From NCBI GenBank assembly GCA_964467385.1, contig CAYXQC010000002.1, forward strand, positions 1,625-65,624: a stretch of DNA of 64,000 bases, in the 5' to 3' direction. Every line of letters starts with the position of its first letter. Positions within the stretch are counted from its first letter, which is position 1. Source of the DNA: an uncultured Candidatus Saccharibacteria bacterium. Lineage in GTDB: Bacteria; Patescibacteriota; Minisyncoccia; Phycocordibacterales; CAIZLB01. A program made the position numbers and the translations under genes. Below are positions 971 to 52,574 of the stretch, piece by piece. Below the pieces are notes generated by a model. It ran no database searches. It saw only the letters and a program-made list of their open reading frames with translations, and was not told the DNA's origin.

Positions 971-1005
971 ATATTTGGTGTTAGCTTATTAAGATTTTTG
1001 TATTT

Positions 1006-1030
1006 AAAAACACCCTTTCGGGTGCTTTTA
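1006..1030. terminator. hairpin CACCC-loop-GGGTG flanked by A/T runs (bidirectional terminator-like)
   Basis: Sequence aaaaacaccctttcgggtgctttta, lying between the 1112..1999 ORF and secE. Confidence 0.45.
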
Positions 1031-1111
1031 TATATGCCACTATTGTAGCCTTCAGGCTGGTTTTGTCAACCCTTGTAAACCTTGGTGTCCAAGGTGACGA
1101 AACCCTCCAAA

Positions 1112-11283: not shown

Positions 11284-11370
11284 ATGCTATATCGTCCAGA
11301 AATACTTGACAAAGAATTTTAGAGGTATATTCTTGCAGTAACACGTTCCTGCGCTAAAAGCAAAAGCCTC

Positions 11371-11778
11371 GTGACAATATTAACAAATAAATACAAAACA
11401 ATGGGAGGAAAATCATCAGCATCAGGAAAAAGAATAAGAAAGGATAACGACAGTATTGAGTTGGTACCACTATCTCGAATGAATTCGTCAGGTGGAGGGT
11501 CTGGAACAAATAAATCAGACGAAAAACTTCAGCCTGTGTGCACACTGTCTTTTGAAACAGAACTGCCTCAGGAAAAGTCTTTACTTGCAGGTACCCCTCT
11601 CCTTCTCAAGGAAGAGGATGGTATATGGAAAATTACACACCAAGGAAAAGTTATTGCAAACCTCAAGAGAGCACGGTCTGCAATGTTGAAACACTGTCTT
11701 GAAGAAGGTTATCATTACAAAGGAAAGGTAAAAGTAAAAGAAGACACCAAATATGGAGAATTTCGAAGATCATCCTAG
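11371..11778 (+). CDS. hypothetical protein
   Basis: 135 aa, divergent from the repressor gene; overlaps the next ORF by 26 nt, suggesting an operon. Confidence 0.35.
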   Translation: MTILTNKYKTMGGKSSASGKRIRKDNDSIELVPLSRMNSSGGGSGTNKSDEKLQPVCTLSFETELPQEKSLLAGTPLLLKEEDGIWKITHQGKVIANLKRARSAMLKHCLEEGYHYKGKVKVKEDTKYGEFRRSS

Positions 11779-12838
11779 AACGCTGTCTTTTGCAAGCCTT
11801 GAGTGTAATGTCAACAATAAAGACTGGGAGCCATTTGTGTCTCCTACTGAAACCTCACAAATACAAGAAGTTTGCTCTGAGGAATCCGTCAATCACATCA
11901 GTTGTAAAAATCCAGATGTCGCTCTCTACATTGAAGACGTACAGGGTTTAGAACTTGATGTTAATTTTGATCAAACTCTTCTTCCAAAGCTACCCAAAAT
12001 GATTCATACTTTGGAAAAAAGCTTCATCTGGTCAGACCCATCAAATATCGAGGGTGACGCCATCAGTATCTCTTTGGGAGATATATTCACCAACCCTCCA
12101 AGAAAAGTTAGTGGTATATTGCGTGCTCCAAAAAGATTGAATTTAAATAAAAAAATACTTCAATCTCCAATGTTCCTGCAGAAAACTGTAATTTTAAACA
12201 TGTCTGCCCAAGACGTTTTAATAGAAAGCTTGTGGATGCAACAAAATAATATATCTATATATTCATCTCTGTACCAATTAGGTTTTAGGTTCGCAACAAC
12301 TCCAAACTTTTCAGTTTTTGCTGGCGAATGTCCGTTAGGACATAGGATAAACCAAAAGAAGAGTCTTGTTTTTGGAAAAGGATTACAAAAAGCTGGTATT
12401 ACAGCAATACCTCACGTATACATAATAAATGACAGTCACCTTGAAGCATACATCACATACTTAAAAAGATTTCCGACAATCAAAACAATTATAATGAACT
12501 GTACACTGCAACGAAAAAGCCCGCTCGAGATTCAACATGTACATAAGATTATTTCGAGATTGATTTTAGAAAGAAAAGATCTTCATATAATTCTGCAAGG
12601 TATAAACATTAAGGATGCAAGGTATTTTTGCGAGTTTGAAGAAAATTTACACTATATGGTTTCAACCGCACACTACAATGCTGTCGTACGAAATGAGAAC
12701 AAATACGGTAATGGAAAATTAGAAACGATCAGAGGTTCTTCTAAAAATAGAGGTGACTTGATAAAAGCAAATACTCATGCGTATGCGGAATTCATTGAAA
12801 ATGTCTGTGTCCCTATTTACCGAAACAATATAGGTTGA
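11753..12838 (+). CDS. hypothetical protein (island cargo)
   Basis: 361 aa, no recognised domain. Confidence 0.45.
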   Translation: MENFEDHPRTLSFASLECNVNNKDWEPFVSPTETSQIQEVCSEESVNHISCKNPDVALYIEDVQGLELDVNFDQTLLPKLPKMIHTLEKSFIWSDPSNIEGDAISISLGDIFTNPPRKVSGILRAPKRLNLNKKILQSPMFLQKTVILNMSAQDVLIESLWMQQNNISIYSSLYQLGFRFATTPNFSVFAGECPLGHRINQKKSLVFGKGLQKAGITAIPHVYIINDSHLEAYITYLKRFPTIKTIIMNCTLQRKSPLEIQHVHKIISRLILERKDLHIILQGINIKDARYFCEFEENLHYMVSTAHYNAVVRNENKYGNGKLETIRGSSKNRGDLIKANTHAYAEFIENVCVPIYRNNIG

Positions 12839-12848
12839 GCGGAAAACT

Positions 12849-13352
12849 CTACTTCAAAAAGTCCCACCTTCCTTTGTAATCTTCCGCTATCGGCATATCA
12901 AGCTTGTATTCACAGCCTTTTTTACCGAGCATGAAAGACCTCAACTTAGAATCATTACGAGTATCCTTTCCGCTCAACCAGTATTTGTGAGACTCCTGAA
13001 TGAACTTGGCTACAACCGCACTAGGCACGATATAGAAGTCAAAAGAGTGAGTGCTTTGCAGGATACTTACAAAGCAGTAGAAGAGGGTTGGATCATTAAT
13101 TGCTTCGTGTTTATCTCCCATTCTCCAATGAGCCTCTACATGACCAAAATCTGCAGATATATATGAATGGTTGTCGTAATGAGTCTTAACCTCAAGTTTG
13201 TACATGTTCTTCGTTTCAGGGTGCGAAAGGAGTATGTCTACACTTTTTGTATTTCCTAAGGTCATGTTTGCGTCGTACCCTCGAAGTGCGAGCTGGGACA
13301 GTACAGCAAACTCACCTGCAAGCCCTATTTGATTTTTAGATATGAATGACAT
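12849..13352 (-). CDS. PD-(D/E)xK nuclease-fold protein (Hjc/NERD-like)
   Basis: Motif string GLAGEFAVLSQLALRGY...VDILL...KLEVKT, which reads as a D...E-x-K arrangement. Confidence 0.45.
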   Translation of the reverse strand: MSFISKNQIGLAGEFAVLSQLALRGYDANMTLGNTKSVDILLSHPETKNMYKLEVKTHYDNHSYISADFGHVEAHWRMGDKHEAINDPTLFYCFVSILQSTHSFDFYIVPSAVVAKFIQESHKYWLSGKDTRNDSKLRSFMLGKKGCEYKLDMPIAEDYKGRWDFLK

Positions 13353-13386
13353 GGAGATATTTTATCATGCTCTAACACTTTTGAAT

Positions 13387-13965
13387 TTACCGCGTGCTTC
13401 CGTTCCAATACCTCGCATTTACTTCACCTTGGTTACAAATAACAACCGAATTATTAACTGTGTGAGTAATCGGGCTAAAAGCCGTACCATCATCGGTTGT
13501 AACCTTGGACCATGAGATTATTACTACCTGTCCAGCTTTAACATCAAATGGATTCCTTGTTCTAAATGGTGGTTTATTAAAATTCCATCCATTTCCACCA
13601 TTAACTCCCACCATGCAGTTACTCCAATCTGTGCTCTCAAGGTTTGTTATGTGAATTCCACTACCCCCAGTCTGAACGCGAACTTTTAAGTCGGAAGTAC
13701 TTGAATTTGAAGAAGGGACAGAAGAATGACTTGATGAGCCGGATTTTGAGCCTGAAGCTGAGAAGAGTCCTAAAAGCAGGAATGATCCAAATATTACAGC
13801 AAATGCTGTAAGGACAAGTCTTTTACTATCGTTCTTTGGTCGACTTCCATGTAAAGAGAAGCTCCTCATCGGTATTTTGATAGTTGATTGACAATAAGGA
13901 CACTTAGTCGCAAGCGCAGATATTTCCTTTATGCAAAATGGACACTTTTTCGTCTCTTCGTTCAT
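13387..13965 (-). CDS. zinc-ribbon (CPFC...CPYC) membrane protein with Ser-rich linker and extracytoplasmic domain
   Basis: N-terminal CxxC x2, one TM helix, then an SGSKSGSSSHSS linker. Confidence 0.5.
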   Translation of the reverse strand: MNEETKKCPFCIKEISALATKCPYCQSTIKIPMRSFSLHGSRPKNDSKRLVLTAFAVIFGSFLLLGLFSASGSKSGSSSHSSVPSSNSSTSDLKVRVQTGGSGIHITNLESTDWSNCMVGVNGGNGWNFNKPPFRTRNPFDVKAGQVVIISWSKVTTDDGTAFSPITHTVNNSVVICNQGEVNARYWNGSTR

Positions 13966-14240
13966 GGTTTTAAAATTTAGCGTTTAAAACCTAGAGTGTA
14001 GGAAACAGAAATCCTACCCCTAGGTGACCACGAGGGTCTGCGCCAGTTTCCCGATGCAACGCTGAATAACGTCCTAAGAGTAGGGTTTCTGTTATTCAGC
14101 GATTTTATGACCATACCTAGAGCCGAAGCAGTAGGGTTAGGTCGCCTATTTAGTTGTAGCTATACTTTACTGTATTTTAAGATAATAGTGAAGGATCTTA
14201 ATATACAGAGAAATTTAATATTGGTAATATTTAATTACCA

Positions 14241-15257
14241 ATGAATCAAAACACATATAAAAGTTTGGAAGATTTTATTAATGGTTTCAAAAGAGAATTT
14301 GGAAGCATCTATAATGATGAAATAAAACATATCAGAGCAATCAATATAAAGCCAAAAAGAAATGGCCTTTACTACCAAAGCCAGTTTCTGGATCTAACCA
14401 ATATACTTGAAAAAGAAAAGTCAAAGACGAGTAAATCAATGATTTTTATGAACATTGATGATGTTATTGCTGAAGAAATTCCAACACTAAATATTGAACC
14501 ATTAAAGAGCGCAGGGAGAAAAATGAGAATTGAAGCTAGTAATTTTTCGATTCTACTCTTAACAGATAAGTTTCAAGAGTTTACTAAACTTTCAAGAAAA
14601 CTACTGAATCTACCTGACGGGGGTTGCAAAGATATAGACGAGCGAGAAACTTATTTTAAGAAATGGGCGTCACACCTATTTCAAGTCAAAATTTTGAAAA
14701 CAGAACATGATATGGCAAGTACATACAAATTATTCAATCTTCCATTAAGATTATTTCTTTCTAGAAATTCTGACTTTGATCACAAAACTTTCGAACAACA
14801 ATTTATGTTGGAAAGAATGGCTTATGACTATATAACACTGGATAAACCTTTTTATTCAGCTGAACTTTTTAATGATAGAAACCAAGATTCTTGTGAACTG
14901 AGACTACCGTCATTAAAACCAGAAAAAATGTTTAATGCAGGAGTTGGGATTGGATTAGTTGCATACCACGAGACAACTAAAGCGGATCTGAAACTTCAAA
15001 TAGACAAAGTCTGGCCAACAATTGAAAATTACCTTAAAAGAACACCTGATAGACCAAAAGAGCAGAAAGAACCTGATCTTGATTCCATGAAAGATAGATG
15101 GACAGCTTACCAACTGCACAAATTACACAGAATGAACTATCAGAAAATTGCCACGATACTAGGAAAAAGCGTCTCTCATTGCCGTAAAATGGCTTCAGAC
15201 TTGAGCAAAGAAGTTAAAAAACTTACAAACAAAAACGCTACTACAAGCAAAAAATAA
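14241..15257 (+). CDS. hypothetical protein with C-terminal HTH (sigma-70 region-4/resolvase-like)
   Basis: 338 aa; the C-terminal stretch YQKIATILGKSVSHCRKMASDL looks like an HTH. Confidence 0.45.
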   Translation: MNQNTYKSLEDFINGFKREFGSIYNDEIKHIRAINIKPKRNGLYYQSQFLDLTNILEKEKSKTSKSMIFMNIDDVIAEEIPTLNIEPLKSAGRKMRIEASNFSILLLTDKFQEFTKLSRKLLNLPDGGCKDIDERETYFKKWASHLFQVKILKTEHDMASTYKLFNLPLRLFLSRNSDFDHKTFEQQFMLERMAYDYITLDKPFYSAELFNDRNQDSCELRLPSLKPEKMFNAGVGIGLVAYHETTKADLKLQIDKVWPTIENYLKRTPDRPKEQKEPDLDSMKDRWTAYQLHKLHRMNYQKIATILGKSVSHCRKMASDLSKEVKKLTNKNATTSKK

Positions 15258-15405
15258 ACTCTCACCAAAAATACTCCATCTTTTGTCATGATGCCCTCAT
15301 GGTATTTCCATACCATGATTATGTCTTCTAAATCCCCAATCGAAACAATAAATATAGCAACGGAAAAAGCAGTCGAACTGCTTGCGGATATTTTTATTGC
15401 GCTGA

Positions 15406-15726
15406 TTGACCACAAGCACAGGCAAAATCTTAATACTAAAAATAAAACGAATAATGAAAACGAAAATCCAACAAACGAATAATGAATTTATTCCAAAAGA
15501 AGATACGACCTACTATTGCACTAGCGATATTGGTCTTACTGCATATTTGATCTACAAGGACCACAAACTTTCCTGTATTCAATACAGCGATGAAAAGCTC
15601 ATTTTTATACTTGAAAGCAATATGTGCACCTATGACGACATCGAGATTTACAAAGGAGAAAAAGAACAGCAAGAAATAATTGACTATATTAAAAACATAA
15701 ACGCTATACATGCACATGCAGAATAA
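15406..15726 (+). CDS. small hypothetical protein
   Basis: 106 aa ORF directly upstream of, and overlapping, the AAA ATPase gene. Confidence 0.3.
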   Translation: MTTSTGKILILKIKRIMKTKIQQTNNEFIPKEDTTYYCTSDIGLTAYLIYKDHKLSCIQYSDEKLIFILESNMCTYDDIEIYKGEKEQQEIIDYIKNINAIHAHAE

Positions 15727-16822
15727 CCCTGATGACAACACTGTAAAACCTATGGAAAAGTTAGTAGGTGAACTTACAGATAATCTAGTTGATACAGACT
15801 CAAGAAACACGGCAATAATCGACTATAAACTTACGTCCTTGAAAGAACTTATGGAAACCGAGTTTGACGCAATTCAATGGGTAGTAGACAGACTTATCCC
15901 CGCTTCAGGTTTAATTGCTTTGTCGGGGGCACCTGCCTCATACAAGACGTGGTTAGTTCTAGATATGGCACAGAAAATTGCTTCTGGTACCCCTTTGTTT
16001 AATAGATTCCAAACAAAGCAGACAGGTGTTCTTTTGGTAGACGAAGAAAATGGTGACCGACTACTTCAAATAAGATTCAAAAAGATTGGAGATAGATTTG
16101 ATTTGCCTATTTATACACTTTCATTTAAATACTTCAAACTAACAAATGACAATGTGAAGAAAATAATACGAGTCGCCAAGAAAAAAGAAATCGGACTGAT
16201 TATATTTGATTCTCTGGTTCGAATTCACGAAGAGGATGAGAACAGTGCAATAGCAATGGCTAGCGTCTTCAGCCTACTACGAAAAATTACAAATGAAGGA
16301 ATAACCGTCATATTCACCCACCACCATAGAAAGAAAGGAAATAATCAGTCTGGTGGATCACAGGAAATGAGAGGATCTTCAGATATCTTAGCTTCTCTAG
16401 ATTGTCACCTGTCAGTAGATAGCGAAAAGGGAGAAAACTCTGTTAAGGTTACTCAGAACAAATCTCGTTATGCGGAAGAAATTGGCAGTTTCACCTTAAA
16501 TGTTATCAAAGACGGAGAGAATTTAAGTTTTGAAATTGATGGAGATATTGAAGAACAGCAAAGTAACAAATCAATCGTTGAAGAAGCTATTGTACACGCA
16601 CTTGCTCTCAATACCGAGCTTTGCAAGACAGACATCCTGAGACTACTGAAACAGGACGGTATAAAAGTCGGAAACTCAACACTTCTAAACACAATAAAAA
16701 GAATGGTAAAGAAAGGTGTCATACAAGAGAAACAAGGAGAGAAGAATACAACTTTATGTTCATTGGTAAAGCCCGAAGAATCACAGCCAAAACAGTCAGT
16801 TAAAAATACCAACACTATATAG
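15710..16822 (+). CDS. RepA-like AAA_25/RecA-fold ATPase with C-terminal winged helix (mobile-element replication/primase-helicase loader type)
   Basis: Degenerate Walker A SGAPASYKT, Walker B LLVDEE, and a C-terminal wHTH-like region. Confidence 0.65.
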   Translation: MHMQNNPDDNTVKPMEKLVGELTDNLVDTDSRNTAIIDYKLTSLKELMETEFDAIQWVVDRLIPASGLIALSGAPASYKTWLVLDMAQKIASGTPLFNRFQTKQTGVLLVDEENGDRLLQIRFKKIGDRFDLPIYTLSFKYFKLTNDNVKKIIRVAKKKEIGLIIFDSLVRIHEEDENSAIAMASVFSLLRKITNEGITVIFTHHHRKKGNNQSGGSQEMRGSSDILASLDCHLSVDSEKGENSVKVTQNKSRYAEEIGSFTLNVIKDGENLSFEIDGDIEEQQSNKSIVEEAIVHALALNTELCKTDILRLLKQDGIKVGNSTLLNTIKRMVKKGVIQEKQGEKNTTLCSLVKPEESQPKQSVKNTNTI

Positions 16823-16946
16823 GGGAGAATTTTAACTCACTCATATACAAAGGGGGTGCATAACCTCTGTTGGTTTAAGTGTGCCTTGAAAGGACGCTTA
16901 AAGAGAAAGGTTACTTAATTATAAGTCAGTAAAAAACATTAAATAT

Positions 16947-18551
16947 ATGAAAAATAAAAATATTGGATTGGCATACTGCCGAGTTTCTACAGAGGATCAG
17001 ACAGATGGTATCTCACTCGACTATCAAGAACAGGAGTGTAAAAAAGCCGCCTACGCAGACGGGTACACAGATGTAATAGTTATTAGAGACGAAGGAAAAA
17101 GTGGTAAAGATCTATTTAGAAAAGGAATACAAGAAGTGATTGAACTAGCAAAGAAAAGAGAGTTCTCAACTATGTATGTTACCAACTCGGACCGCCTTGC
17201 TCGTAGCGTAGAGGCTCACGCTTTTGTTAGAACCATACTTAAAAATAATGATGTAAAACTCAAATACTTAAACGGTCAATCTTCAGGAGAAGATGCCAGT
17301 TCTATATTGACCGATAACATGTTTGCAACTATTAACCAGTTTTACAGTGATACAACCCGAGAGAAAACGATTCAAGCAGTAGACACAAAAGCACGAGCAG
17401 GCTACTTCCCTGCCAATGTACCCGCAGGATATATGAACGTAGAAAACCCAGACAAGAACTGTGAGAAAGTTGCGAAGAGAATTATTGTTCCACACCCAAA
17501 GACTGCCCATCTTGTAACGGAAGCTTTTAAGTTATATGCAACAGGTCAGTACAATGTATTTCAGTTAAATGATATGTTACACGACAAAGGCTTAGTGAGT
17601 AGTTCGGGTAAAAAATTAGTCCCTGCCATGTTCTATAAGATGCTCAAGAACAGACTGTATCTTGGAGAAATTCATTGGAGAGACATACACGTAAAAGGAA
17701 AGCATCAACCACTTATTGATGAAGCAACTTTTGATCAGGTACAGAAAATTGCAAACAACAATACAAACGGACGTTGCCGAAGACGTAAGTATAAGTGGCT
17801 TCTGAACGGGTATATCTTCTGCCCTATTCACAATAGAAAATTTACTGCAGAGTGGCACTTAGGAAAGCGTATTGCTTACTACCACTGTACTAATCCAGGA
17901 GGATGCGGAAAATATATTGAGAAGTCCAACTTAGAAGGACAAGTTGCAGACAAGTTTAGACTACTAGAATTTAGTGACGACTTTGTAGAATCAATCGTTG
18001 CAAAGGTTAAACAGGTTTATCAAGACAGGAAAGATAATTATCAATCTGAATACAGAGGTCTATTAAACAAAAGAAATGCATGTGAGATTAAGATTAGATC
18101 TGCTGAAGATAGATTAGTTGACGGATCACTTAGTAGCGAAGCCTGTAAAAGAATCACGGACGACATGAGAACATCTATTTCTAAAGTAGATTCACAGATA
18201 AACAAACTGCAAACTGTGCAGGATATAAACATAGACGTATTAGGCGAAATTCTGGCGTTTACGAAGAATTTATACAAAACATATATTCAGGCACCGGAAG
18301 ACTATCAAAAGCACATGATTGGATGTTTCTTTGATGGTTTTGAAGTAAAGGATGGAGTTATAATAAAAGAGCGATTGACCCCACTATTTCAGGTTTTATT
18401 GGATGCAAATACCATGTTTATGAAAGGTGTCAAAAACAAAATATCCCCTGAAATAAAGGGATATTCTGAAGTTATAATAACTAATTTAATGGGTGCCCAG
18501 AGAGGATCGAACTCTCGTAACCGGATCCACAGACCGGGGCTTTACCACTAA
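16947..18551 (+). CDS. large serine recombinase (integrase)
   Basis: N-terminal resolvase domain YCRVSTEDQ...SLDYQ, a recombinase domain, and a zinc ribbon (CPIHNRKF...HCTNPGGCGKY). The last ~60 nt are antisense to tRNA-His. Confidence 0.85.
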   Translation: MKNKNIGLAYCRVSTEDQTDGISLDYQEQECKKAAYADGYTDVIVIRDEGKSGKDLFRKGIQEVIELAKKREFSTMYVTNSDRLARSVEAHAFVRTILKNNDVKLKYLNGQSSGEDASSILTDNMFATINQFYSDTTREKTIQAVDTKARAGYFPANVPAGYMNVENPDKNCEKVAKRIIVPHPKTAHLVTEAFKLYATGQYNVFQLNDMLHDKGLVSSSGKKLVPAMFYKMLKNRLYLGEIHWRDIHVKGKHQPLIDEATFDQVQKIANNNTNGRCRRRKYKWLLNGYIFCPIHNRKFTAEWHLGKRIAYYHCTNPGGCGKYIEKSNLEGQVADKFRLLEFSDDFVESIVAKVKQVYQDRKDNYQSEYRGLLNKRNACEIKIRSAEDRLVDGSLSSEACKRITDDMRTSISKVDSQINKLQTVQDINIDVLGEILAFTKNLYKTYIQAPEDYQKHMIGCFFDGFEVKDGVIIKERLTPLFQVLLDANTMFMKGVKNKISPEIKGYSEVIITNLMGAQRGSNSRNRIHRPGLYH

Positions 18552-18563
18552 GCTATGGGCACC
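18490..18563 (-). tRNA. tRNA-His (anticodon GTG) with encoded G-1
   Basis: Cloverleaf read by hand: G-1 + GTGCCCA, D-arm GCTT/AAGC, anticodon loop CTGTGGA, T-arm GAGAG-TTCGATC-CTCTC, acceptor TGGGCAC + C73. Position 31:39 is a T:T. Confidence 0.8.
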
Positions 18564-21828: not shown

Positions 21829-22578
21829 TTAATCTGTAATCTTTGCAGCCGCTTGAAAGTCTTCAGGAAGTAATGCTTCTACTTCTATGACCTCACCGTT
21901 GATTCCCTTAAATGAGATCTTAGAAGCATGGAGCGCGTGTCGTTTGAACCCAAGTGCCTGTGGATGATTTGGTGCATACAAGACGTCTGCTACCACTGGG
22001 TGATTTATAGCCTTCATGTGCACACGAATCTGATGAGTACGTCCTGTTTTAGGCTTAATCTCAAGAAATGTGAATTGTTGAGGAATTTTCAAGGTTTTAT
22101 TCATACTCGAATTGAGCGAAAATCTTTTCAAAACTCTATATTCAGTAATCGCCTCACGAAGTTCACCTCGCGCAAATCGCTCAGCTGACCATTTTCTGAA
22201 ATCACTTTTACTTCTCCCAATAGGTCGCAAGATAATTCCCTTATCCTCTTTCACTGTCCCCCATACATGCGCATAGTATGTTTTTTGGATTTTATGTTCT
22301 TGAAATAATTTCTTTAAAAATTCAAAACTTGTTTGATTTTTAGCAACAACAAGTACACCTGATGTATCTTTATCGAGCCTGTGTACAATACCAGGTCTAT
22401 CCAGAACTGTACCATCTTGAAATTTGGCAGGCTCACCTACACCAGTTAAATTTGGGTGATGTTCATGAATCCAGTCACTTACCGTATACTCTTTTGATCG
22501 ACCATCACCATGAACCATTATTCCTGCTGGTTTATTGAGTACAAGAAGATCTTCATTTTCGAAGAGTATAGAGATCAT
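21829..22578 (-). CDS. RluA-family pseudouridine synthase
   Basis: Catalytic-Asp motif HRLDKDTSGVLVVAKN. Confidence 0.85.
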   Translation of the reverse strand: MISILFENEDLLVLNKPAGIMVHGDGRSKEYTVSDWIHEHHPNLTGVGEPAKFQDGTVLDRPGIVHRLDKDTSGVLVVAKNQTSFEFLKKLFQEHKIQKTYYAHVWGTVKEDKGIILRPIGRSKSDFRKWSAERFARGELREAITEYRVLKRFSLNSSMNKTLKIPQQFTFLEIKPKTGRTHQIRVHMKAINHPVVADVLYAPNHPQALGFKRHALHASKISFKGINGEVIEVEALLPEDFQAAAKITD

Positions 22579-22661
22579 ATACCACTCAATCTACCACGTG
22601 AATGTAGGATGGTAAAATTTGATACAAAATCTATTTTAGGTTATAGTAGCAACCACACATT

Positions 22662-22737
22662 GGGAGATTAGCTCAGTTGGTAGAGCAACTCATTTACACT
22701 GAGAAGGTCACAGGTTCGAGTCCTGTATCTCCCACCA
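22662..22737 (+). tRNA. tRNA-Val (anticodon TAC), CCA encoded
   Basis: GGGAGAT-TA-GCTC-AGTTGGTA-GAGC, anticodon loop TTTACAC, T-arm ACAGG-TTCGAGT-CCTGT, then ATCTCCC-A-CCA. Confidence 0.9.
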
Positions 22738-22740
22738 AAT

Positions 22741-22775
22741 AAAATAGTCCAACTTCTGTTGGGCTATTTTATTTC
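22741..22775 (+). terminator. terminator hairpin after tRNA-Val
   Basis: aatagtccaac-ttctg-ttgggctatt followed by a T-run. Confidence 0.6.
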
Positions 22776-22887
22776 TCATGGATATAAGGACGAGAAAGCC
22801 GGAGCGAAGCTGCTATATGAGCGGAGCGAATTGCAGCAAGCGAGGCGGGGTCGACAGGAAAATTGTGTAGCAATTTTAACTGGTGAC

Positions 22888-22908
22888 CGAGTCCTGTATC
22901 TCCCACCA
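22888..22908 (+). repeat. 21-nt exact direct repeat of tRNA-Val 3' end (cgagtcctgtatctcccacca), att-like scar
   Basis: Identical to 22717..22737. A GC-rich non-coding fragment lies between the two copies. Confidence 0.8.
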
Positions 22909-22910
22909 TA

Positions 22911-22947
22911 AAAGAAAAGTCCCTTTAGACAGGGACTTTTCTTTTAT
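22911..22947 (+). terminator. terminator hairpin after the duplicated tRNA end
   Basis: aaaagtccctttagacagggactttt followed by a T-run. Confidence 0.6.
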
Positions 22948-22997
22948 CTCAAGACTGACATGATACTAAGTGGTTAAGCTGGTGGAACAAGACTCCA

Positions 22998-23621
22998 CTA
23001 ATTTCCACTCTGCACCTGACTAATACTCTTACCCCTACAAGTCTCCATCACTGTAGTATATTTTGGACCAGCAGTTCCTGGGTGTATCAATTCCGCAAAT
23101 GAACCATTTGAAAAATTATATGCGATTCCTAGATTACTTCCATTTCCATCATTACCTGCAAAATAGTACACGTGATCTCTTCCGTCTGCATACCCATAAT
23201 CACCACGAGAAGCAAGATCAAGATATACTTCAAAATTTCCATTTTTACACTTTACCCAATTAGGCCAACCTGCAAGTTTTTGTTCCCCAGTAGAACTTCC
23301 CCCTCCAATAACCGTATTTACTCCCCCTGTACCTCCTGAGAACGTACTCCATGTTGCCTTACCTTCAGCATCAGAAATAAGTACTTTACCAGCACCTTCA
23401 GAGCCATCAATGAGTTGGAATTTTCCAAACACTGCCAATCCTCCAAGACCAAGTTTACCTAATTTGTTTTGATTACTGATAGACACGTTGAGTGGTGCAG
23501 GAGTGTTGTTTGAAGGAGGATTTGAAGGAGCAGCAGTCCACGCCAGTGCTACAGGCACACCCGCAAAGAGTACGAGGGATGTGATGATTGTTTTGATGTT
23601 GTTTGAGTTAATAAATTTCAT
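22998..23621 (-). CDS. secreted protein, paralog 1 (conserved N-terminal W.AAPSNPPSNN...GGLAVFG module)
   Basis: Signal peptide plus N-terminal module shared with 23633..24355; Gly/Asn-rich. Confidence 0.5.
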   Translation of the reverse strand: MKFINSNNIKTIITSLVLFAGVPVALAWTAAPSNPPSNNTPAPLNVSISNQNKLGKLGLGGLAVFGKFQLIDGSEGAGKVLISDAEGKATWSTFSGGTGGVNTVIGGGSSTGEQKLAGWPNWVKCKNGNFEVYLDLASRGDYGYADGRDHVYYFAGNDGNGSNLGIAYNFSNGSFAELIHPGTAGPKYTTVMETCRGKSISQVQSGN

Positions 23622-23632
23622 ATTGGTTTTTA

Positions 23633-24355
23633 TTAGAATTTAGTAAATGCAGGATCATTGATAGACTTACCAATATCAAAGCATGGTGCATATTCTTTAG
23701 GAATTTGACCACCGCTCATATAGTCGCCGTTTCCGTGGACGATAAGTGATTTCTTTGTTGATGCATCAAAGAAGATAGAAATAAGTCCGCCAATCTGACC
23801 ATAAATATATCCAGGCTGAGAAGAGTATCTTTCTTGCCCCTTCGGGAAATACCCAACAAGTGGGAGCATGTATTTTCGTCCTGTTGTAGCATTACACATG
23901 ATTACATTTGGCCAACCACTAATATACTGACCACCACTTGATACACTTGACGCATTACTTGTAACTGTATTTACTCCAGGACCACCAAGTGTAGTTACAC
24001 AATTTGTGCCAAACTGATCACAGTACTCAGCTGCACCGACCGCACCGTTTACACCAAGGAGAAAGTTCGTCTTACCAGCAGGAGCTGTATACGTAGTATC
24101 TTTGGAGAAAGTTCCGATACCAGTAAAAACACTTGAACCAAAGACTGCAAGACCTCCAACCCCAAGTACACCGTCTTTTGCCTGACTTACATTACTGACA
24201 TTTACTGGTGGTTGTACATTGTTTGATGGTGGATTAGCTGGCGCAGGTTTCCATGTTGAAGCTGCATTTGTGTAAACAATATTGATTCCGAATGCTACTA
24301 ACAAAATTGCAGCGATCGATGTGATTTGTTTTATTCTTGGTGTGGTGTAATTCAT
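23633..24355 (-). CDS. secreted protein, paralog 2
   Basis: N-terminal module shared with 22998..23621: WKPAPANPPSNNVQPPVNVS...GVGGLAVFG. Confidence 0.5.
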   Translation of the reverse strand: MNYTTPRIKQITSIAAILLVAFGINIVYTNAASTWKPAPANPPSNNVQPPVNVSNVSQAKDGVLGVGGLAVFGSSVFTGIGTFSKDTTYTAPAGKTNFLLGVNGAVGAAEYCDQFGTNCVTTLGGPGVNTVTSNASSVSSGGQYISGWPNVIMCNATTGRKYMLPLVGYFPKGQERYSSQPGYIYGQIGGLISIFFDASTKKSLIVHGNGDYMSGGQIPKEYAPCFDIGKSINDPAFTKF

Positions 24356-24479
24356 GTGTATGGATATGTATATATCACCATTTTATCATGATTATTTTTT
24401 GCGTGTAGAATTTTATACACTTTTAGTCGTTACCTTTCATCTTTACATATCCTCTATCGTTTATTTTCAAATTTTCATA

Positions 24480-25793
24480 CTACCGTCTATCATCACGTAC
24501 TTTTGAGAGCACATAGAGGCCTATCAAAATAAAAACGGTGATGACGAGTATAGCGATTCGGTAGCGAAGACTACCTAAAGAAATCAATCCGGTCACTACC
24601 CCACCCCATACAAGTGGGCCGAGAAGTGACGATGCTCGCTCAACCAATCCAAAATATGCAAAAGTTAAATTTCGATCTCGTTCAGGTGCAAGATAAGACA
24701 TCACAGACCGAGACACTGTCCAATTGGCACCAAACCAAAATCCCATAAACACAGTAGCCATGAAGAATACATAAAAAATATTTAAAAAACCTATAGTAGG
24801 TAATAAAAATACCCACCCCGCCAGAATCCAAAACAATGTCCTCCGATGACCAAACCTATCAGCGATATATCCAGAAACAAGCCCTCCTATTGCTGATGAG
24901 ATAACGATTCCGGCCAAAATTCCCGTCTTCACAGTGTCTGATACACCCCAAACCTGTTCCAGAAAAATTGGAAAATTATTTGCAGCAGTTACAATTGCAT
25001 CATTGAAAAGAAAATATGCGAGCATAAATAAACCAACACCTTGAACTTTTAGAAGTTCTTTAGTTTTTATATATGTATTTTTGAAAATTTCTTGAGCATT
25101 AAAATTGTTTGAATTGTGTAATATACCTAGACCATTCGAGTTATTCAACTTAACCATTTCATCTGCATCACTTTTTTCCTCTTTTAAGAACAGGAGCACA
25201 GGTAGTGCACATAGCATGAAGATAAGGGTTGCAGGAAGAAACGTTTCGACTCGTGCAGAAATTGCCATTTCCTCTGAAAACAATCCGATGATCTTCCATA
25301 CACCTCTAGCAAATGGCAGAGCCAGAACCAGACCAACAAACTGACCTAGATAATTTGCCGCGATTCCATATCCGGAAACTCTACCAATATTTTCCTTTGT
25401 GGATACACTATAGATAAGTGGTGTATAGAAAGTGAATGATAAAAGGTATGTAAAAAATCCAACCGTGTACGTTACCAACGAATACTCTACATTCCCCATT
25501 GCAGCAAAATAAACAGTAAGAAGATAAAATAAAATTGTAAACCCTGTACTATATCTAAGCCCACTCAATCGCGAATATCCTTTATCCAGAAAAACTCCAG
25601 TAAACGGTACTGTACAGAGAAGCAACAAGGCTGTTATGGTAAAAATAAGATTAAAAGAAAGATCAGACAATCCCTTTTCTACAACAATCCATTGCGTAAA
25701 ATAGAGAAAAAACACAATAGAAACAATAGAGTTCGCAAAATCATAGAGAACCCACAAGATCATGTTTCGTCGCATCACTTTGTCGTTATTCAT
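24480..25793 (-). CDS. MFS transporter, UMF1/Atg22-like family
   Basis: N-terminal WVLYDFANS hallmark and about 12 TM helices. Confidence 0.7.
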   Translation of the reverse strand: MNNDKVMRRNMILWVLYDFANSIVSIVFFLYFTQWIVVEKGLSDLSFNLIFTITALLLLCTVPFTGVFLDKGYSRLSGLRYSTGFTILFYLLTVYFAAMGNVEYSLVTYTVGFFTYLLSFTFYTPLIYSVSTKENIGRVSGYGIAANYLGQFVGLVLALPFARGVWKIIGLFSEEMAISARVETFLPATLIFMLCALPVLLFLKEEKSDADEMVKLNNSNGLGILHNSNNFNAQEIFKNTYIKTKELLKVQGVGLFMLAYFLFNDAIVTAANNFPIFLEQVWGVSDTVKTGILAGIVISSAIGGLVSGYIADRFGHRRTLFWILAGWVFLLPTIGFLNIFYVFFMATVFMGFWFGANWTVSRSVMSYLAPERDRNLTFAYFGLVERASSLLGPLVWGGVVTGLISLGSLRYRIAILVITVFILIGLYVLSKVRDDRR

Positions 25794-25810
25794 GCAAACC
25801 TATTATAACG

Positions 25811-27022
25811 CTACTTATTAAGCTCCGATCTTGTCTTTGGACCTACCGTCCCTGTTTGCAAGATCTTGTATTTCTTTTGAAACGCTTTTACACCCGCTTG
25901 AGTCTGGGATCCAAAAGTCCCAGTTACTGGACCTGAGTACACTCCAGCTACGGTTAATCTCTTTTGTAGCTCAGTGACAGCCATACCTTTTGATCCAATT
26001 TTTAAATCTGTTGTAAATGTGTATTTTTTTACACCCACACTAGTAGTATTTGAAGTTGTGGCAACACGAATAACAGTAGGCGTGGTAGCCTGTACACTAT
26101 TTGATATACCACTTGATACCGTAATAGAAAAAGTTGTTTCCGAAACATTCGATCCTTCAGTTGTCATAACCGTTACTATGTGGTGGCCAACATCTACCCT
26201 CTCTGGTTTCCATACAAAGTTATTGTCTTCTATTTTTGCTGAATCAATCGTATTTCCTCGAAACGAGTCGCGAATACTGTATGTTGGTGATGATATTCCG
26301 TATATTTTAAAAGGAATTCTGATTATGGTTTCTGCTTCAACTGACCCTGGAACTGATTCAAACTTAATACCATTTACCGTGATTGTCTGATAGACAGTAT
26401 CTCTTCTACCTTGTGAATTAGTTACAGTTATTTGAATATTATGTACACCAACATCGTTCTTTGTTGGTTTCCAATTGAAATTACCATACGCATCTATATT
26501 TGCATTTGAAATACTTGTACCACTGAAAGAATCATACACATAGTAGTTTGGTGAGGTATACCCAAGGGCAGCCACACCAAAAGAGACACTTTCATCCGGG
26601 AATGCACTTGTGCGAGAAATGTTTTTAATAGACACCGACGAGGCTTGTACAATGGTAAAGTTTTGAGTGAGCGTTGTCTTTGTATTGTTTTGGTCAATTA
26701 CGGTAAATATAAGAGTATGAGTTCCAATATCTTGTTCTTGTGGCGTCCAATTAAAATATCCAGCTTGTGTAATATTTGAATTTGAAACAGTACTCTGTGG
26801 GGAGTCATCAAATATGGTGTATTTGAGGCCATATGCTTCAGTATCAAACTTAAAGGAAACAGTTGTACCTACCGGAATCGTAGTACTTGGAGAAATGATA
26901 CCAATTTTTACAGTAGCAGCATTAACACAAAAAGGATTAAGCAGGAATAGACCAAAGATAAAGAGTAAGGCGAACTTCATTCTAAATTTAAGAAATTTTG
27001 AAGTTTTTTTCATACACAACAT
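25811..27022 (-). CDS. secreted Ig-like repeat protein with C-terminal peptidoglycan-binding (PGBD_1) domain
   Basis: Four repeats of about 75 aa (DSF.G..I..A.I...F.WKP...D.G.H), then KGMAVTELQKRL...GPVTGTFGSQTQAGVKAFQKKY. Confidence 0.6.
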   Translation of the reverse strand: MLCMKKTSKFLKFRMKFALLFIFGLFLLNPFCVNAATVKIGIISPSTTIPVGTTVSFKFDTEAYGLKYTIFDDSPQSTVSNSNITQAGYFNWTPQEQDIGTHTLIFTVIDQNNTKTTLTQNFTIVQASSVSIKNISRTSAFPDESVSFGVAALGYTSPNYYVYDSFSGTSISNANIDAYGNFNWKPTKNDVGVHNIQITVTNSQGRRDTVYQTITVNGIKFESVPGSVEAETIIRIPFKIYGISSPTYSIRDSFRGNTIDSAKIEDNNFVWKPERVDVGHHIVTVMTTEGSNVSETTFSITVSSGISNSVQATTPTVIRVATTSNTTSVGVKKYTFTTDLKIGSKGMAVTELQKRLTVAGVYSGPVTGTFGSQTQAGVKAFQKKYKILQTGTVGPKTRSELNK

Positions 27023-31207: not shown

Positions 31208-31292
31208 GGAGGAGTCGCATAGTGGTTTAGTGCACCCGTCTTGAAAACGGGAGTGCCGCAAGGTACCGCGAGTTCGAATCTCGCCTCCTCCG
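31208..31292 (+). tRNA. tRNA-Ser (anticodon TGA), type II
   Basis: GGAGGAG acceptor, anticodon stem CCCGT/ACGGG with loop CTTGAAA, long variable arm, T-arm GCGAG-TTCGAAT-CTCGC, discriminator G. Confidence 0.85.
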
Positions 31293-31365
31293 CATTGACA
31301 ACCTGTTAGTAACGTGTTCTCATGTGCCTGACGTTTCAGTGCGACTCACGTGCCTACATGTTGTA

Positions 31366-31398
31366 CAAAATACCAGCAATTTCGCTGGTATTTTGTTT
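31366..31398 (+). terminator. terminator hairpin downstream of tRNA-Ser
   Basis: aaataccagc-aatttc-gctggtatttt. Confidence 0.55.
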
Positions 31399-31438
31399 GT
31401 ATAAACGATAAAAGCTTTTAAAGCCTAAAAATGATAAG

Positions 31439-33214
31439 ATGCCTATTAATATGGATGGAAAACAAATTTATCAATCAAAATACTCCAATAGTTGGGCACT
31501 AGTTATAGGCATCAATAAATATCATCATGCCTCTCCTTTGGGTTATGCTACCAATGATGCCACAGCCGTAGCTGAAACATTAGAAAAGAAATTCGGTTTT
31601 CCAAAAGAAAACATAACACTCTTGTTGGACGATAATGCGACAAAAGATGAGATTATAAAATCTTTTCTTGAATACACAAATAAAACTAGCTCTGATGATC
31701 GCATATTAGTTTTCTATGCAGGCCACGGACACACACTTCTTGGTAAGCGTGGAGAAGTTGGCTTTCTCGTTCCAGTTGATGGCAGACCAACTGAAATGGA
31801 AAGTTTAATGAGATGGGATGAATTTACCCGAAATGCAGATTTGGTTCCTGCAAAACATATTTTCTTTTTGATGGATGCTTGTTATGGAGGTCTGGCATTT
31901 TTAAGAAGTCCGGCCTTCGGTAATATGCGTTTTCTTGGCGATATGCTCCAGCGTTATGCTCGCCAAGTATTGACCGCAGGTAAAGCTGATGAGACTGTTG
32001 CTGACGGAAATGGCGTCCGTCCTGGACATTCAATTTTTACTGCACACCTACTCGATGCCCTTGAAGGTGCTGCTGCAACTCAAGAAGGAATTATCACCGC
32101 TAACGGTGTCATGGCCTACGTATACGATCGAGTTGGACGGGATGAATACTCTCATCAAACTCCGCATTACGGTTTCATCGAAGGTGATGGTGATTTTATT
32201 TTCGACACCTCAGTTTTGGATAAATTGAGAACTTCTGATACCGAATCATCTTCTGAGGCAAAGGAGGGTGAGAAAGGAGAAAAAGATATTCTTATCAATA
32301 CTTCTCCTGAATTGGTGATTAAAGACAAAGCGGAATCAAAAGTTTCTGTGGCTGAAACGATGAAAGATCTCCTGTCTGATCCATCAAAAAAAATAAAGCT
32401 TGATGATTACGTATCTTTTCATGTTAGAAAATTTTTAGACGCAACCGATCTTCGACATTTTCCTGTTCAAGGCTCAGGGGTACAAAAGGAAGAATTTATT
32501 GAGCGTTTGAATAAATATGAGGAGCTTTCAAAAGATCTTCAGCAGATTGTGATTCTGCTTTCAAAATGGGGCAACAAGGATCAATTGCAGTTGCTTGAAA
32601 AAATATTTACAAGATTGGCGGAGACTGATAAGGGTTCTTCAGGCTTGGTTTTGTGGCTCAACTTCAGCTGGTATCCTATACAACTATTGATGTATTGTGT
32701 GGGAATTGCCGCTCTCGGATCAAAAAATTATGAAGCATTGAAGGTATCATTATTGACCCTTGTTAAAGAAGAAAATTTAGAAAAGCAGGTTCCGATAATC
32801 ATTCCGATGGGAAGCAACATGTCGAGGATTCATGATAGTTTCAAGTGGCTTCCCGGGCATGATCGACATTACGTTCCACGAAGCGAATACCTCTTTAAGG
32901 CTTTACAGCCCGTGATAGAAGATTTATTATTTGTTGGCAAAAGTTACGAAGCTTTATTCGATAAATTCGAGATTATCGTGGCACTTACATATGCAGATGT
33001 TATGAATAGCGATTGGGGTCCTGTCGGTAGATTCGGATGGAAACACAGTAGAGGCTATGGAATAAGTCCAGTCGCAGCTCTCATAGAAGAAGCAAAAAAT
33101 GATAAAGATAATTGGGACCTGTTAAAGGCAGGAATGTTCAATAAGTCCTCATCGAGATTTATTGAAATCGCTGAAAAATATCAAGAGAGATTAAATAAAC
33201 TAGGTTGGTGGTAA
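31439..33214 (+). CDS. caspase-like (peptidase C14) protease fused to ~330-aa uncharacterised C-terminal domain
   Basis: N-terminal ALVIGINKY, a catalytic His in VFYAGHGH (nt ~31724) and a catalytic Cys in LMDACYGG (nt ~31880). The C-terminal half has no recognisable domain. Confidence 0.75.
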   Translation: MPINMDGKQIYQSKYSNSWALVIGINKYHHASPLGYATNDATAVAETLEKKFGFPKENITLLLDDNATKDEIIKSFLEYTNKTSSDDRILVFYAGHGHTLLGKRGEVGFLVPVDGRPTEMESLMRWDEFTRNADLVPAKHIFFLMDACYGGLAFLRSPAFGNMRFLGDMLQRYARQVLTAGKADETVADGNGVRPGHSIFTAHLLDALEGAAATQEGIITANGVMAYVYDRVGRDEYSHQTPHYGFIEGDGDFIFDTSVLDKLRTSDTESSSEAKEGEKGEKDILINTSPELVIKDKAESKVSVAETMKDLLSDPSKKIKLDDYVSFHVRKFLDATDLRHFPVQGSGVQKEEFIERLNKYEELSKDLQQIVILLSKWGNKDQLQLLEKIFTRLAETDKGSSGLVLWLNFSWYPIQLLMYCVGIAALGSKNYEALKVSLLTLVKEENLEKQVPIIIPMGSNMSRIHDSFKWLPGHDRHYVPRSEYLFKALQPVIEDLLFVGKSYEALFDKFEIIVALTYADVMNSDWGPVGRFGWKHSRGYGISPVAALIEEAKNDKDNWDLLKAGMFNKSSSRFIEIAEKYQERLNKLGWW

Positions 33215-33216
33215 GT

Positions 33217-34563
33217 TTATTCATTTTCTTTTTCTTCTTTTAGTAAGGTAATCTTCTTGTCGTTCAGCACGAGCCTTGAGCGCAGATGTCCCATGAGCTC
33301 TCGTTTTTCTATCGCCGTTCCTTCACGTAGCACATACTTGGCATACTCCCTCGTCGCCACTTCATTCTCGTCGATCTTGAACTTCGGACTGCCTTTGCTC
33401 GCAAGTCTCTGCAGTCTGTTGAACTTCTTAATTTCTTCCTCTAGCTTCATCCTCATGCCAAGCTCGTTGATGTTCACGATATCGATCACTTTCAGTAGTT
33501 CCTCGATTAGCTCCTCCTCTCTTACGTATTTATTCTTGCAGTTTCGATCTTTCGACTTCGAGCAGGAGTAGTAGATGTATTTGGCGTTGGTGCCGTCTTT
33601 CAGTTCCTTGTATTTCTCCTGCGCCGTGATGCCCGACTCACACATCCCACAGGTGAAAAGCTTGGTGAAAGCGAACTCTCGGTTTTCTCGCACGATCTTG
33701 TCTCGCTTCAATCGCTCCTGCACTTTCTTGAAGAGTTCCTCGGATATGATCGGCTCGTGCTTTCCGTGGTAGAAGAGTCCACTGTTTCTCGGAAACTCAA
33801 AGATACCGTAGTAGAAGGGATTTTGGAGCGTGCGATATACGCCCGCAAGAGTGAGTGACTTGTTTCCTCTGGTGTAGAAATTCAAATCGAACTTGAGCCA
33901 GTTGTATACCTTTCTTCCGCTCCACTCATCGTATGCTACTTTCTCGAATATCTGCTTCATGATCGGCGCACGATCTGGGTCGACCGCCACTTGGCATTTC
34001 TTGTCGAACTGTTTCTGATTGAGATATCCCAAAGGTGCCATTCCAGGCCAGAGTCCCATCTCCACTCTTGTTCTAAGTCCTCGCTTGACGTTGATGCCTC
34101 GGTTGTCATTCTCCAACTTTGCTTGGCTACACAAAATCATCAGCATGAACTTGTCATTTGGGGAGTTTGTGAATTGCTGACCGTACGTTCGTATGTCCTT
34201 CAGCACGTTCGCATCCATGAGGTCGATCACTTTTCCGAGGTCTCCTGCATTTCTAGATATTCGGTCTGGTGCCCATGTCAGAATCCCATTGAACTTCTTC
34301 TGCTTGATCTCCTCGACGATCTCGTTGAAGACTGGTCGTTGCCCAGTTTCCTTTGCCGAGTGTGATTCTCGCTTCATCGTCACGATCTCCAACCCCTCTC
34401 GTTCGGCAAGTTTCAGCATCTCACTGATCTGGCTGTCGATCGAGAGGACTTGTCGTTCCTCCGATTCCGTTGATTTTCTCGCGTAAAGGCAGTACTTCAC
34501 TGGCACTACCTTTGCCGGAGCCTTTTGGGGCAGCTCCGAAGGCCCTTGTGGTGCTTGATACAT
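33217..34563 (-). CDS. large serine recombinase (integrase), GC-rich
   Basis: Resolvase domain YARKSTESEERQ..SIDSQ, a recombinase domain, and a zinc ribbon (CGMCES...YYSCSK). Its stop is 2 nt from the caspase gene stop. Confidence 0.85.
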   Translation of the reverse strand: MYQAPQGPSELPQKAPAKVVPVKYCLYARKSTESEERQVLSIDSQISEMLKLAEREGLEIVTMKRESHSAKETGQRPVFNEIVEEIKQKKFNGILTWAPDRISRNAGDLGKVIDLMDANVLKDIRTYGQQFTNSPNDKFMLMILCSQAKLENDNRGINVKRGLRTRVEMGLWPGMAPLGYLNQKQFDKKCQVAVDPDRAPIMKQIFEKVAYDEWSGRKVYNWLKFDLNFYTRGNKSLTLAGVYRTLQNPFYYGIFEFPRNSGLFYHGKHEPIISEELFKKVQERLKRDKIVRENREFAFTKLFTCGMCESGITAQEKYKELKDGTNAKYIYYSCSKSKDRNCKNKYVREEELIEELLKVIDIVNINELGMRMKLEEEIKKFNRLQRLASKGSPKFKIDENEVATREYAKYVLREGTAIEKRELMGHLRSRLVLNDKKITLLKEEKENE

Positions 34564-52568: not shown

Positions 52569-52574
52569 CTAGAT

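Follow-up and report, generated by a model that had tools for sequence, protein, structure and literature searches.

Small structured elements tied to tRNA 3' ends: a member behind tRNA-Val in a Candidatus Saccharibacteria contig

Integrative elements that target tRNA and transfer-messenger RNA (tmRNA) genes (prophages, integrative and conjugative elements, and islands, with the T-loop 'sublocation' of tyrosine integrases) and their integrase-less derivatives, the cis-mobilizable elements, are the described systems closest to the locus reported here. In them a direct repeat starts in the T loop and extends to the 3' end of the tRNA, their DNA rebuilds the tRNA, tmRNA is used as well, and they accrete in tandem at one tRNA; the locus is like them in these respects. 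It lies behind a tRNA-Val gene in a 64,000-nucleotide stretch (the window) of contig CAYXQC010000002.1, from an uncultured Candidatus Saccharibacteria bacterium (assembly GCA_964467385.1). In contrast to those elements, the present unit is about 145-200 bp and non-coding, has a covarying three-way junction and an inverted copy of the tRNA end, is found at almost any tRNA, and, with one exception, did not turn up in searches of viral contigs, phages and plasmids. We know of no cognate integrase for it. Based on comparison with a covariance model of related sequences, we propose that positions 22780-22908 are an intact copy of a small structured element and not the debris of a lost island.

Three other kinds of described element resemble the unit in part. 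Integron cassettes and their attC sites (and the folded attP of CTX phage) are small, non-autonomous tandem units with an imperfect palindrome that folds single-stranded and with arms whose structure is more conserved than their sequence; they are moved in trans, and a folded stem of this sort could mimic a duplex target. The present element differs in that its partner is a tRNA gene, its arms copy the local tRNA, a conserved branched core replaces the variable spacer, there is no cassette open reading frame (ORF), no attI was seen, and none of 38 scanned window ORFs is an IntI. REPINs and miniature inverted-repeat transposable elements (MITEs) are also about 100-200 bp, non-coding, hairpin-forming, intergenic, often located by terminators, and presumably moved in trans. 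However, the arms of the present unit copy the neighbouring tRNA end rather than being element-specific terminal repeats, and there is no short target-site duplication. tRNA-like RNAs (the tmRNA domain, YrlA, and viral tRNA-like structures) and plant dicistrons of tRNA and small nucleolar RNA share an acceptor/T-stem-like coaxial helix, sometimes a hairpin at the tRNA 7/49 position, and a location directly after a tRNA. In the present unit, unlike these, a three-way junction replaces the T loop, the 5' arm extends its pairing over the discriminator and C74 or CCA, neither ARAGORN nor Rfam recognizes the sequence, and a terminator separates the tRNA from the element.

The 3' end of the tRNA-Val gene is repeated exactly downstream. 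The 21-mer CGAGTCCTGTATCTCCCACCA occurs exactly twice in the window, with 171 nt from start to start and no third match at up to three mismatches. Two matches were found in none of 100 dinucleotide shuffles, even when three mismatches were allowed. The tRNA itself has the T loop TTCGAGT and an encoded CCA. ARAGORN found a single gene and no second tRNA, pseudo-tRNA, or tmRNA at the locus, the Rfam tRNA model likewise called only this gene, and the interval between the repeats aligns to a three-way-junction model rather than to a cloverleaf with D and anticodon arms; we therefore rejected a tRNA pseudogene or tandem duplicate. That interval is 150 nt, and its sole ORF is one of 50 amino acids (aa), with a TTG start, across the structured core. 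The guanine-plus-cytosine (GC) content of 22780-22860 is 0.51-0.58, compared to about 0.25-0.46 in the flanks. These observations bear out several statements of the initial annotation: that the tRNA end is repeated, that the fragment between the copies is GC-rich, and that the downstream copy does not belong to another complete tRNA.

Each copy of the repeat is followed by a terminator-like hairpin, again as initially described. Hairpin A has 17-bp arms at 22737-22753 and 22758-22774, and the arms of hairpin B are at 22908-22924 and 22931-22947. As read from the sequence, both are GC-rich at the top and T-rich on the 3' side (TATTTTATTT; TTTTCTTTTAT), and they resemble intrinsic terminators because an A-tract precedes and a T-tract follows the GC-rich top. 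Hairpins of the form CAATGC-GNAG-CATTG, akin to hairpin A, are present in two Val modules of other loci (L073 and L066; loci are given by our L numbers), a related form (CAAATGC-GGAG-CATTTG) is in L051, and a looser one is in the Ala module of L231. Judging from these sequences, hairpin A appears to travel with the element in other loci. Two hairpin-tip motifs recur in many modules and in the window at 48082-48131 and 52576-52606: triloops of the type C(GNA)G (GCGAAGC, GCGGAGC, or GCGTAGC), and (A)ACTGCT(T) loops in hairpin A or in a hairpin that splits the 5' arm.

The segment between the hairpins is predicted to fold into a closing helix and a three-way junction. In order, a unit has a terminator-like hairpin, a 5' arm with the reverse-complement sequence of the host tRNA 3' end, the junction core, and a 3' arm with the tRNA sequence from C56 of the T loop to its end. 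The folded part is about 115-130 nt, directly behind a tRNA or tmRNA gene, and the length between successive tRNA-end copies is about 145-200 bp. In the window, the arms form helix P1 (22780-22794 with 22889-22904), which has 11 pairs, one mismatch, and one bulge, the complementarity of arms expected of a member; tandem G.A pairs are possible in its inner CGAG/GAG. Junction J1/2 is AAA (22795-22797), and P2, which encloses the hairpin P2a, is GCC (22798-22800) with GGC (22844-22846). J2/3 is GG (22847-22848), and P3, which carries a long distal hairpin, is GGTCG (22849-22853) with TGACC (22884-22888). The core formula is ..GAAAGCCGGAG-hairpin-GAGGCGGGGUCG-hairpin-GUGAC, and the window core belongs to what we call type 1, ..GAA(A/G)GCCGGAG-hairpin-GAGGCGGGGTCG-hairpin-GTGAC/CGA...

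The fold defines a family of sequences and is kept by compensatory changes on the tRNA-sense strand. We aligned the window with 36 short-core members using MAFFT (alignment A1), and the RNAalifold consensus showed compensatory changes. Across P1, P2, P2a, P3, and the distal hairpin, 88.2% of the cells were paired, compared to 70.7% in shuffled alignments (reached in 0 of 500), and there were 204 double-change cells versus 67 in shuffles (again 0 of 500). The covariation score was 0.459, and sliding the partners by 1-3 columns gave at most 0.10. P1 was paired in 77% of cells across the family, with covariation, and the middle pair of P2, usually C-G, is A-U in L073 and G-C in L070. An invariant G.U pair at columns 70/101 and 11 G.U pairs at columns 72/99 place the fold on the tRNA-sense strand. 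About 25 junction nucleotides are highly conserved. A covariance model (R1), made from 36 other loci with the window excluded from the seed, matched the window element at 22785-22897 over its full length (model positions 1-88) with 59.5 bits (E~1e-15). The match begins 48 nt past the tRNA end and the 5' arm 43 nt past it, and the tRNA copy is exact over 21 nt.

Table 1. Features of the window discussed in the text. R1 is the covariance model; A1 is the alignment from which the consensus fold was taken; MFE, minimum free energy.
Feature	Positions	Strand	Basis or remark
Large serine recombinase, 534 aa	16947-18551	+	last ~20 codons antisense of tRNA-His 18491-18562 (-)
RluA pseudouridine synthase, divergent neighbour	21829-22578	-	closest relatives at most 65% identical
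tRNA-Val(UAC), host gene	22662-22737	+	ARAGORN; Rfam tRNA 72.5 bits
Direct-repeat copy 1 (tRNA positions C56 to A76)	22717-22737	+	exact 21-mer
Hairpin A, between tRNA and element 5' arm	22737-22774	+	inverted repeat I3, arms 94% complementary
5' arm (a'), GGATATAAGGACGAG	22780-22794	+	sequence; MFE pairing with 3' arm; model positions 1-9
Three-way-junction core	22795-22887	+	MAFFT alignment A1, RNAalifold, pair counts, covariance-model hit
Direct-repeat copy 2 (element 3' arm, 3' strand of P1)	22888-22908	+	exact copy of tRNA 3' end
Hairpin B, after repeat copy 2	22908-22947	+	inverted repeat I2, 17 nt, 100% complementary
Third, more decayed member, after tRNA-Arg(GCG) 48009-48081 and a hairpin	48117-48218	+	R1 17.2 bits, E 0.008
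Second, decayed member, after tRNA-Lys(UUU) 52496-52569 and a terminator hairpin	52606-52714	+	R1 32.8 bits, E 1.4e-7

The element is tied to the 3' ends of tRNA and tmRNA genes of almost any identity. We collected 80 Paceibacteria loci (581 kb) by way of the neighbouring RluA protein and not by the core pattern. In these, 20 of 210 tRNA genes (Val, Leu-gag, Arg-tct, and His) had their last 14 nt repeated in the locus, 18 of them with a same-strand copy about 125-325 nt downstream; the initial annotation had proposed looking for the same configuration in related strains, and it is there. Some loci have arrays (four copies in L063, three in L011 and L036). All 34 covariance-model matches (E<=0.01) in the 581 kb were on the same strand as a tRNA and just downstream of it, compared to an estimated chance of about 8% for a qualifying position. 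About 1/8 of the tRNA genes in the 80 loci had at least one type-1 unit. Behind the orthologous tRNA-Val, the distribution was patchy: no more than about a dozen of the 80 loci had a match. We rejected a MITE or REPIN identity, since the arms change with the host tRNA and none of the 34 matches was dispersed to an unrelated site.

The same linkage was seen in metagenomes. A scan with the pattern GAGGCGGGGTCGN{20,50}GTGACCGA found at least 120 loci; most of the matches listed were true modules and the rest were chance matches in GC-rich coding DNA. In a set of 104 type-1 copies, about 75 had a same-strand tRNA upstream within a few hundred nt, in most cases 20-100 nt away; those with no tRNA were mostly at contig ends. 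Two copies that at first seemed to lack a host were behind tmRNA genes (L201 and L271, where the 5' arm is complementary to the tmRNA 3' end). In the 75 copies with a tRNA no more than 130 nt away, the hosts comprised 18 amino-acid tRNA identities, and a direct copy of the tRNA end was at least 15 nt in 51 and at least 19 nt in 45 of the 75. An exact reverse-complement arm of at least 8 nt was present in 42 of the 75 (9 with an unrelated tRNA), and one of at least 12 nt in 14 (none with an unrelated tRNA). The family is widespread in Patescibacteria (bacteria of the candidate phyla radiation, CPR), in Paceibacteria and relatives, and is apparently undescribed. With Rfam 15, only the tRNA and junk sub-threshold matches were obtained in 22550-23050 at E<=10, and only tRNAs at these modules at the gathering score in the window and 16 related loci. 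Literature searches by concept and by conserved sequence strings found nothing relevant, although the family may be described elsewhere.

The arms of the unit follow the local tRNA closely. The inner 8-9 pairs of P1 (T-loop remnant and T stem) are retained in 60-90% of copies and include several pair types, and the acceptor part is paired in a subset only. Where present, the 5' arm covers the discriminator and C74, plus CCA when it is encoded (TGGTGGACGTGA / TCACGTCCACCA in L220), and therefore leaves no free NCCA end. At tRNA genes that do not encode CCA, the arm is complementary to the genomic trailer (CACAAAT) instead, which excludes templating on the mature tRNA and led us to reject a primer-binding site of the retroviral type. 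We also rejected the arm as a copy of the 5' strand of the tRNA T stem, because it is a perfect complement despite a G.T wobble in the tRNA (L051, L073, and L070). Some copies have an extra hairpin that splits the 5' arm precisely where the acceptor part meets the T stem. Often, one long near-perfect palindrome extends from the tRNA 3' end through the trailer and hairpin A into the 5' arm (L051, L219, and L271).

Similar cores are found behind different tRNAs. Cores 86-95% identical in their variable hairpins occurred behind Arg and Glu, Gln and Lys, Arg and Trp, Val, Leu, and Trp, and Ala and Arg tRNAs, in each case with both arms matched to the local tRNA. Arrays are homogeneous, with identical units, or heterogeneous: in L219 a single tRNA-Gly is followed by three units that differ in their cores, and L271 has types 1 and 2 and a third unit behind tmRNA. 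The L051 genome has units behind four tRNAs (Arg, Val with two, Leu, and His); in it the 5' arm matches the reverse complement of the local tRNA end over 21-23 nt, including at sites with a decayed downstream copy.

There are at least three core types, and the junction with the tRNA copy varies with the type. Type 2 (L003, L020, L021, L023, L034, L036, L069, and L071) has ..GTACTG-GNNCTGTAAGNNC-CGA and a small hairpin that covaries clearly, and type 3 (L065, L079, and L051 3205-3340) ends ..GTGAGATAGCGWAGCG. Both follow the plan of type 1, with arms from the tRNA end and the core in the T-loop position. A rare mirror-image form lies upstream of an intact tRNA (L204 13877-14140, L244 1-275, and L282 652-910). 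Here the tRNA leader and 5' part are copied as far as the 5' strand of the T stem, and an extra hairpin (CTTGARCGG..CGYTCAAG) and a type-1 core follow. In L203, an RNA-like sequence at 700-840 and 985-1110 (minus-strand orientation) has a tRNA-like 3' end (..GGGGTTCGAATCCCTATCCCCGAACCA) and a repeated CCGATGAGG; it has no ARAGORN call, serves as host to a type-1 module, and recurs downstream as a second, partial copy.

The window has two further members, behind tRNA-Lys and tRNA-Arg (Table 1), neither of which has a copy of the tRNA end. The Lys member ends GTGACCACA, and both have the ending GTGACCAC(A/T)A, an alternative that is also present in L002, L032, and L230. From their sequences, these copies seem to show the end state after loss of the arms.

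No recombinase or cargo accompanies the unit. There was no recombinase gene between or beside the repeats among ten ORFs scanned in 18.6-28.5 kb; the neighbouring proteins are RluA, unknown secreted proteins, a major facilitator superfamily (MFS) transporter, and a peptidoglycan-binding protein. The 38 window ORFs scanned included no tyrosine recombinase and no Nop or IS110 domain. The specific diagnostic pattern, with its 120 or more metagenomic matches, had 0 matches in 2.9 M viral contigs, as did an exact 24-mer of the window core. A loose pattern gave at least 120 loci in viral contigs, and among the matches listed two passed an upstream-motif filter and one was convincing (L174, IMGVR_UViG_3300033463_005745, first 3.3 kb). 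At this locus, the only viral-collection case among the matches listed, a complete and a truncated type-1 module stand in tandem at the end of a 34.7-kb viral-labelled contig, with no tRNA in the first 3.3 kb. Searches of phages and plasmids with blastn gave nothing or GC-rich chance matches. Intact elements carrying the GC-rich fragment beside an integrase, which the initial annotation had led us to look for, were not found: among about 100 copies there was no longer, integrase-bearing version. Judged as an integrase-site island, the locus thus has the direct repeats and lacks the integrase and the cargo-bearing intact relatives.

In the interpretation that we favour, with a probability of about 60%, the window element is an intact representative of a family whose members are small, structured, and non-coding and recombine inside the T loop of tRNA and tmRNA genes. 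The element was probably moved in trans. In a mechanism resembling Campbell-type insertion, a unit of ~150-200 nt would recombine inside the T loop, at the 55/56 junction for a type-1 core. The tRNA would be rebuilt from the unit's own copy of the 3' end and terminator A, and the displaced chromosomal 3' end with terminator B would become the 3' strand of the closing helix P1, so that hairpin B would be the original terminator of the tRNA. Because the unit codes for nothing, a factor in trans would be needed. The conserved fold could be recognized by that factor or by the cell, either as RNA (from read-through or the unit's own transcription) or as folded single-stranded DNA.

Several points weigh against this interpretation. 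No mobilizing enzyme was found in scans of window ORFs and loci. There is no pair of empty and filled sites, as the window species is represented only by short contigs; the exact RluA product has no database record, a shorter product (P0001) is 100% identical, and the contigs with P0001 include two of 1.0-1.5 kb that both end short of the element. The 5' arm of the window copy (GGATATAAGGACGAG) is imperfect, with one substitution and one deletion compared to the perfect complement (GGAGATACAGGAC..). Invariance of the core bases is partly by construction, since the metagenome members were retrieved with the core pattern; the covarying positions are outside that pattern. Efficient transcription is argued against by the terminator-like hairpin that precedes the element and by the lack of a conserved promoter, and the RNA and single-stranded DNA forms may both stand as alternatives. 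Finally, the matching of arms to new tRNA species is not explained by simple site-specific or homologous integration. A bolder version would deal with the matching directly: a three-armed mobile entity of ~150-200 nt, possibly circular RNA or single-stranded DNA, whose arms are re-templated from any tRNA or tmRNA target and which inserts by nucleic-acid guidance or structural mimicry. This would have no known counterpart, and we consider it doubtful. If it were true, one core lineage could colonise many tRNA species.

The units might instead be an immobile family of host small-RNA genes, whose copies arise by local partial duplication of the tRNA 3' end or are kept identical to it by gene conversion; the RNA would be co-transcribed with the tRNA and freed by tRNA-processing enzymes, much as in the plant dicistrons, for a tRNA-like or anti-tRNA role. 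We think this account unlikely. The strong sense-strand covariation, the conserved junction nucleotides, the extra hairpin at the acceptor/T-stem boundary of the 5' arm, placed as in tRNA, and the arm kept in L051 where the downstream copy has decayed all speak for it. However, near-identical cores are behind different tRNA species in different genomes, arrays are heterogeneous, occurrence among relatives is patchy, the mirror-image variant duplicates the 5' part of the tRNA, and the window itself has decayed copies. In addition, the paired discriminator and C74 or CCA leave no free NCCA end as in tRNA mimics, and a terminator is upstream of the element.

It is quite unlikely that a circular replicon of ~150-200 nt, of non-coding RNA or of single-stranded DNA, gave rise to the units as integrated DNA copies and to the arrays as its multimers. 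Such a circle would have the arms and hairpin A as one long hairpin and P2 and P3 as the other two arms. The unit is indeed a neatly closing circular permutation with a long palindrome (L051, L219, and L271), the breakpoint is exactly at the P3/P1 junction, tandem units can be identical, and C(GNA)G triloops, which form very stable DNA mini-hairpins, are frequent at hairpin tips. Yet unequal crossing-over also produces tandem repeats, neither a free circular form nor a ribozyme, replication protein, or reverse transcriptase was found, and the Rfam ribozyme models were silent at the locus. The pairing of the 5' arm with the genomic trailer rather than an added CCA also counts against it, and excludes only templating on mature tRNA.

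The initial annotation read the repeats as attL and attR of an integrase-borne island or prophage in tRNA-Val that had lost nearly all of its DNA, with the fragment as leftover att arms. One part of this holds: a direct repeat from T loop to 3' end marks DNA that has recombined with a tRNA gene, and tRNA-targeting integrases reportedly leave just such an identity block. The region downstream of tRNA-Val also varies among relatives, and recombinase-bearing elements adjoin other tRNAs in the window. The scar left by cargo loss is the part that finds no support, as the fragment is a complete family member and a recurrent small unit, and we regard this explanation as very unlikely. Units of the same size recur at many tRNAs with covarying helices, which count against it because protein-binding att arms would show none. 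Moreover, neither a long version nor an integrase remnant was found, the viral, phage, and plasmid searches described above were negative for the diagnostic pattern, and the recombinases of the window are of the large serine type, at other tRNAs that show no such repeat.

That the locus is merely an elaborate terminator or insulator, or a chance repeat, is scarcely credible: T-tract hairpins do flank the unit and its location is always the 3' end of a tRNA gene, but termination needs no three-way junction with invariant unpaired bases and compensatory changes, and both the repeat and the score for membership are far beyond chance.

We also compared the fold with known RNAs and rejected three identities. 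The Type II hammerhead ribozyme has the same topology, with an open helix, two hairpins, and a junction with CGAAA and GUGA..GA. Covariation at columns 7/108 contradicts the G8/A9/G12/A13 register, there is no A15.1-U16.1/H17 context, and no Rfam hammerhead matched even at E<=10. Guides of TIGR-Tas and of IS110 bridge RNAs also occur in CPR bacteria. Guide RNAs of these types keep short dual guides unpaired in internal loops that lie between box C/D-like motifs, and a Nop-domain (Tas) or IS110 protein is encoded alongside (PMC12045711). In the present unit the segments that match the target form a helix with one another, and the scanned window ORFs lack both protein domains. Variants of the form GAUGAGAA..GUGACCGA have tandem G.A pairs that suggest a kink-turn or box C/D motif, but the strand order and bulge length do not fit.

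If the element is mobile, it would represent a new way to parasitise essential tRNA genes without breaking them, and the puzzle would be how both arms are rewritten to fit a new tRNA. As a host RNA, it would instead constitute a large class, so far uncatalogued, of structured RNAs linked to tRNAs in a major bacterial branch. The frequency of type-1 units among the sampled tRNA genes is found in genomes that, in CPR bacteria, are tiny. For annotation, the units mimic att scars or pseudo-tRNA ends, and the covariance model is ready for screening.

The tRNA genes around the locus are in a conserved order. The order tRNA-His, tRNA-Leu(gag), RluA, tRNA-Val, tRNA-Arg(tct) is kept in many of the 80 loci, and the closest relatives of the window RluA are in metagenome-assembled genomes of Paceibacteria/Parcubacteria. 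The stretch from tRNA-Val to tRNA-Arg(tct) is variable, as the two genes are only 3 nt apart in L027, L031, and L035. In the window this stretch is about 4.7 kb and has four genes (22998-27022), encoding two unknown proteins (207 and 240 aa), the MFS transporter, and the peptidoglycan-binding protein. The 207-aa and 240-aa proteins have a common ..PPSNN.. stretch after a hydrophobic N-terminus.

Other tRNA genes in the window are associated with large serine recombinases. Upstream of the 534-aa recombinase that overlaps tRNA-His (Table 1) are genes for an AAA_25 ATPase (15710-16822) and a LexA/S24-like repressor (10600-11283), and 10600-18551 is probably an integrated element at tRNA-His. This tRNA has no duplicated end in the window. 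Homologous recombinases are beside or overlap tRNA-His in L078, L034, L041, and L046, and a LOOT RNA (RF03000; 14026-14143 (-), 63.5 bits) is inside the putative element. At 31208-34563, genes for a caspase-domain protein (31439-33214) and for a second large serine recombinase (33217-34563 (-)) come after tRNA-Ser(UGA), and they may mark another insertion linked to a tRNA. We considered these recombinases as mobilizers of the small units and rejected them, as they are at tRNA-His and tRNA-Ser, have homologues in only 8 of ~200 loci, and could not be linked to the units. Two adjacent genes for N6/N4 DNA methyltransferases are at 43280-45434 (-).

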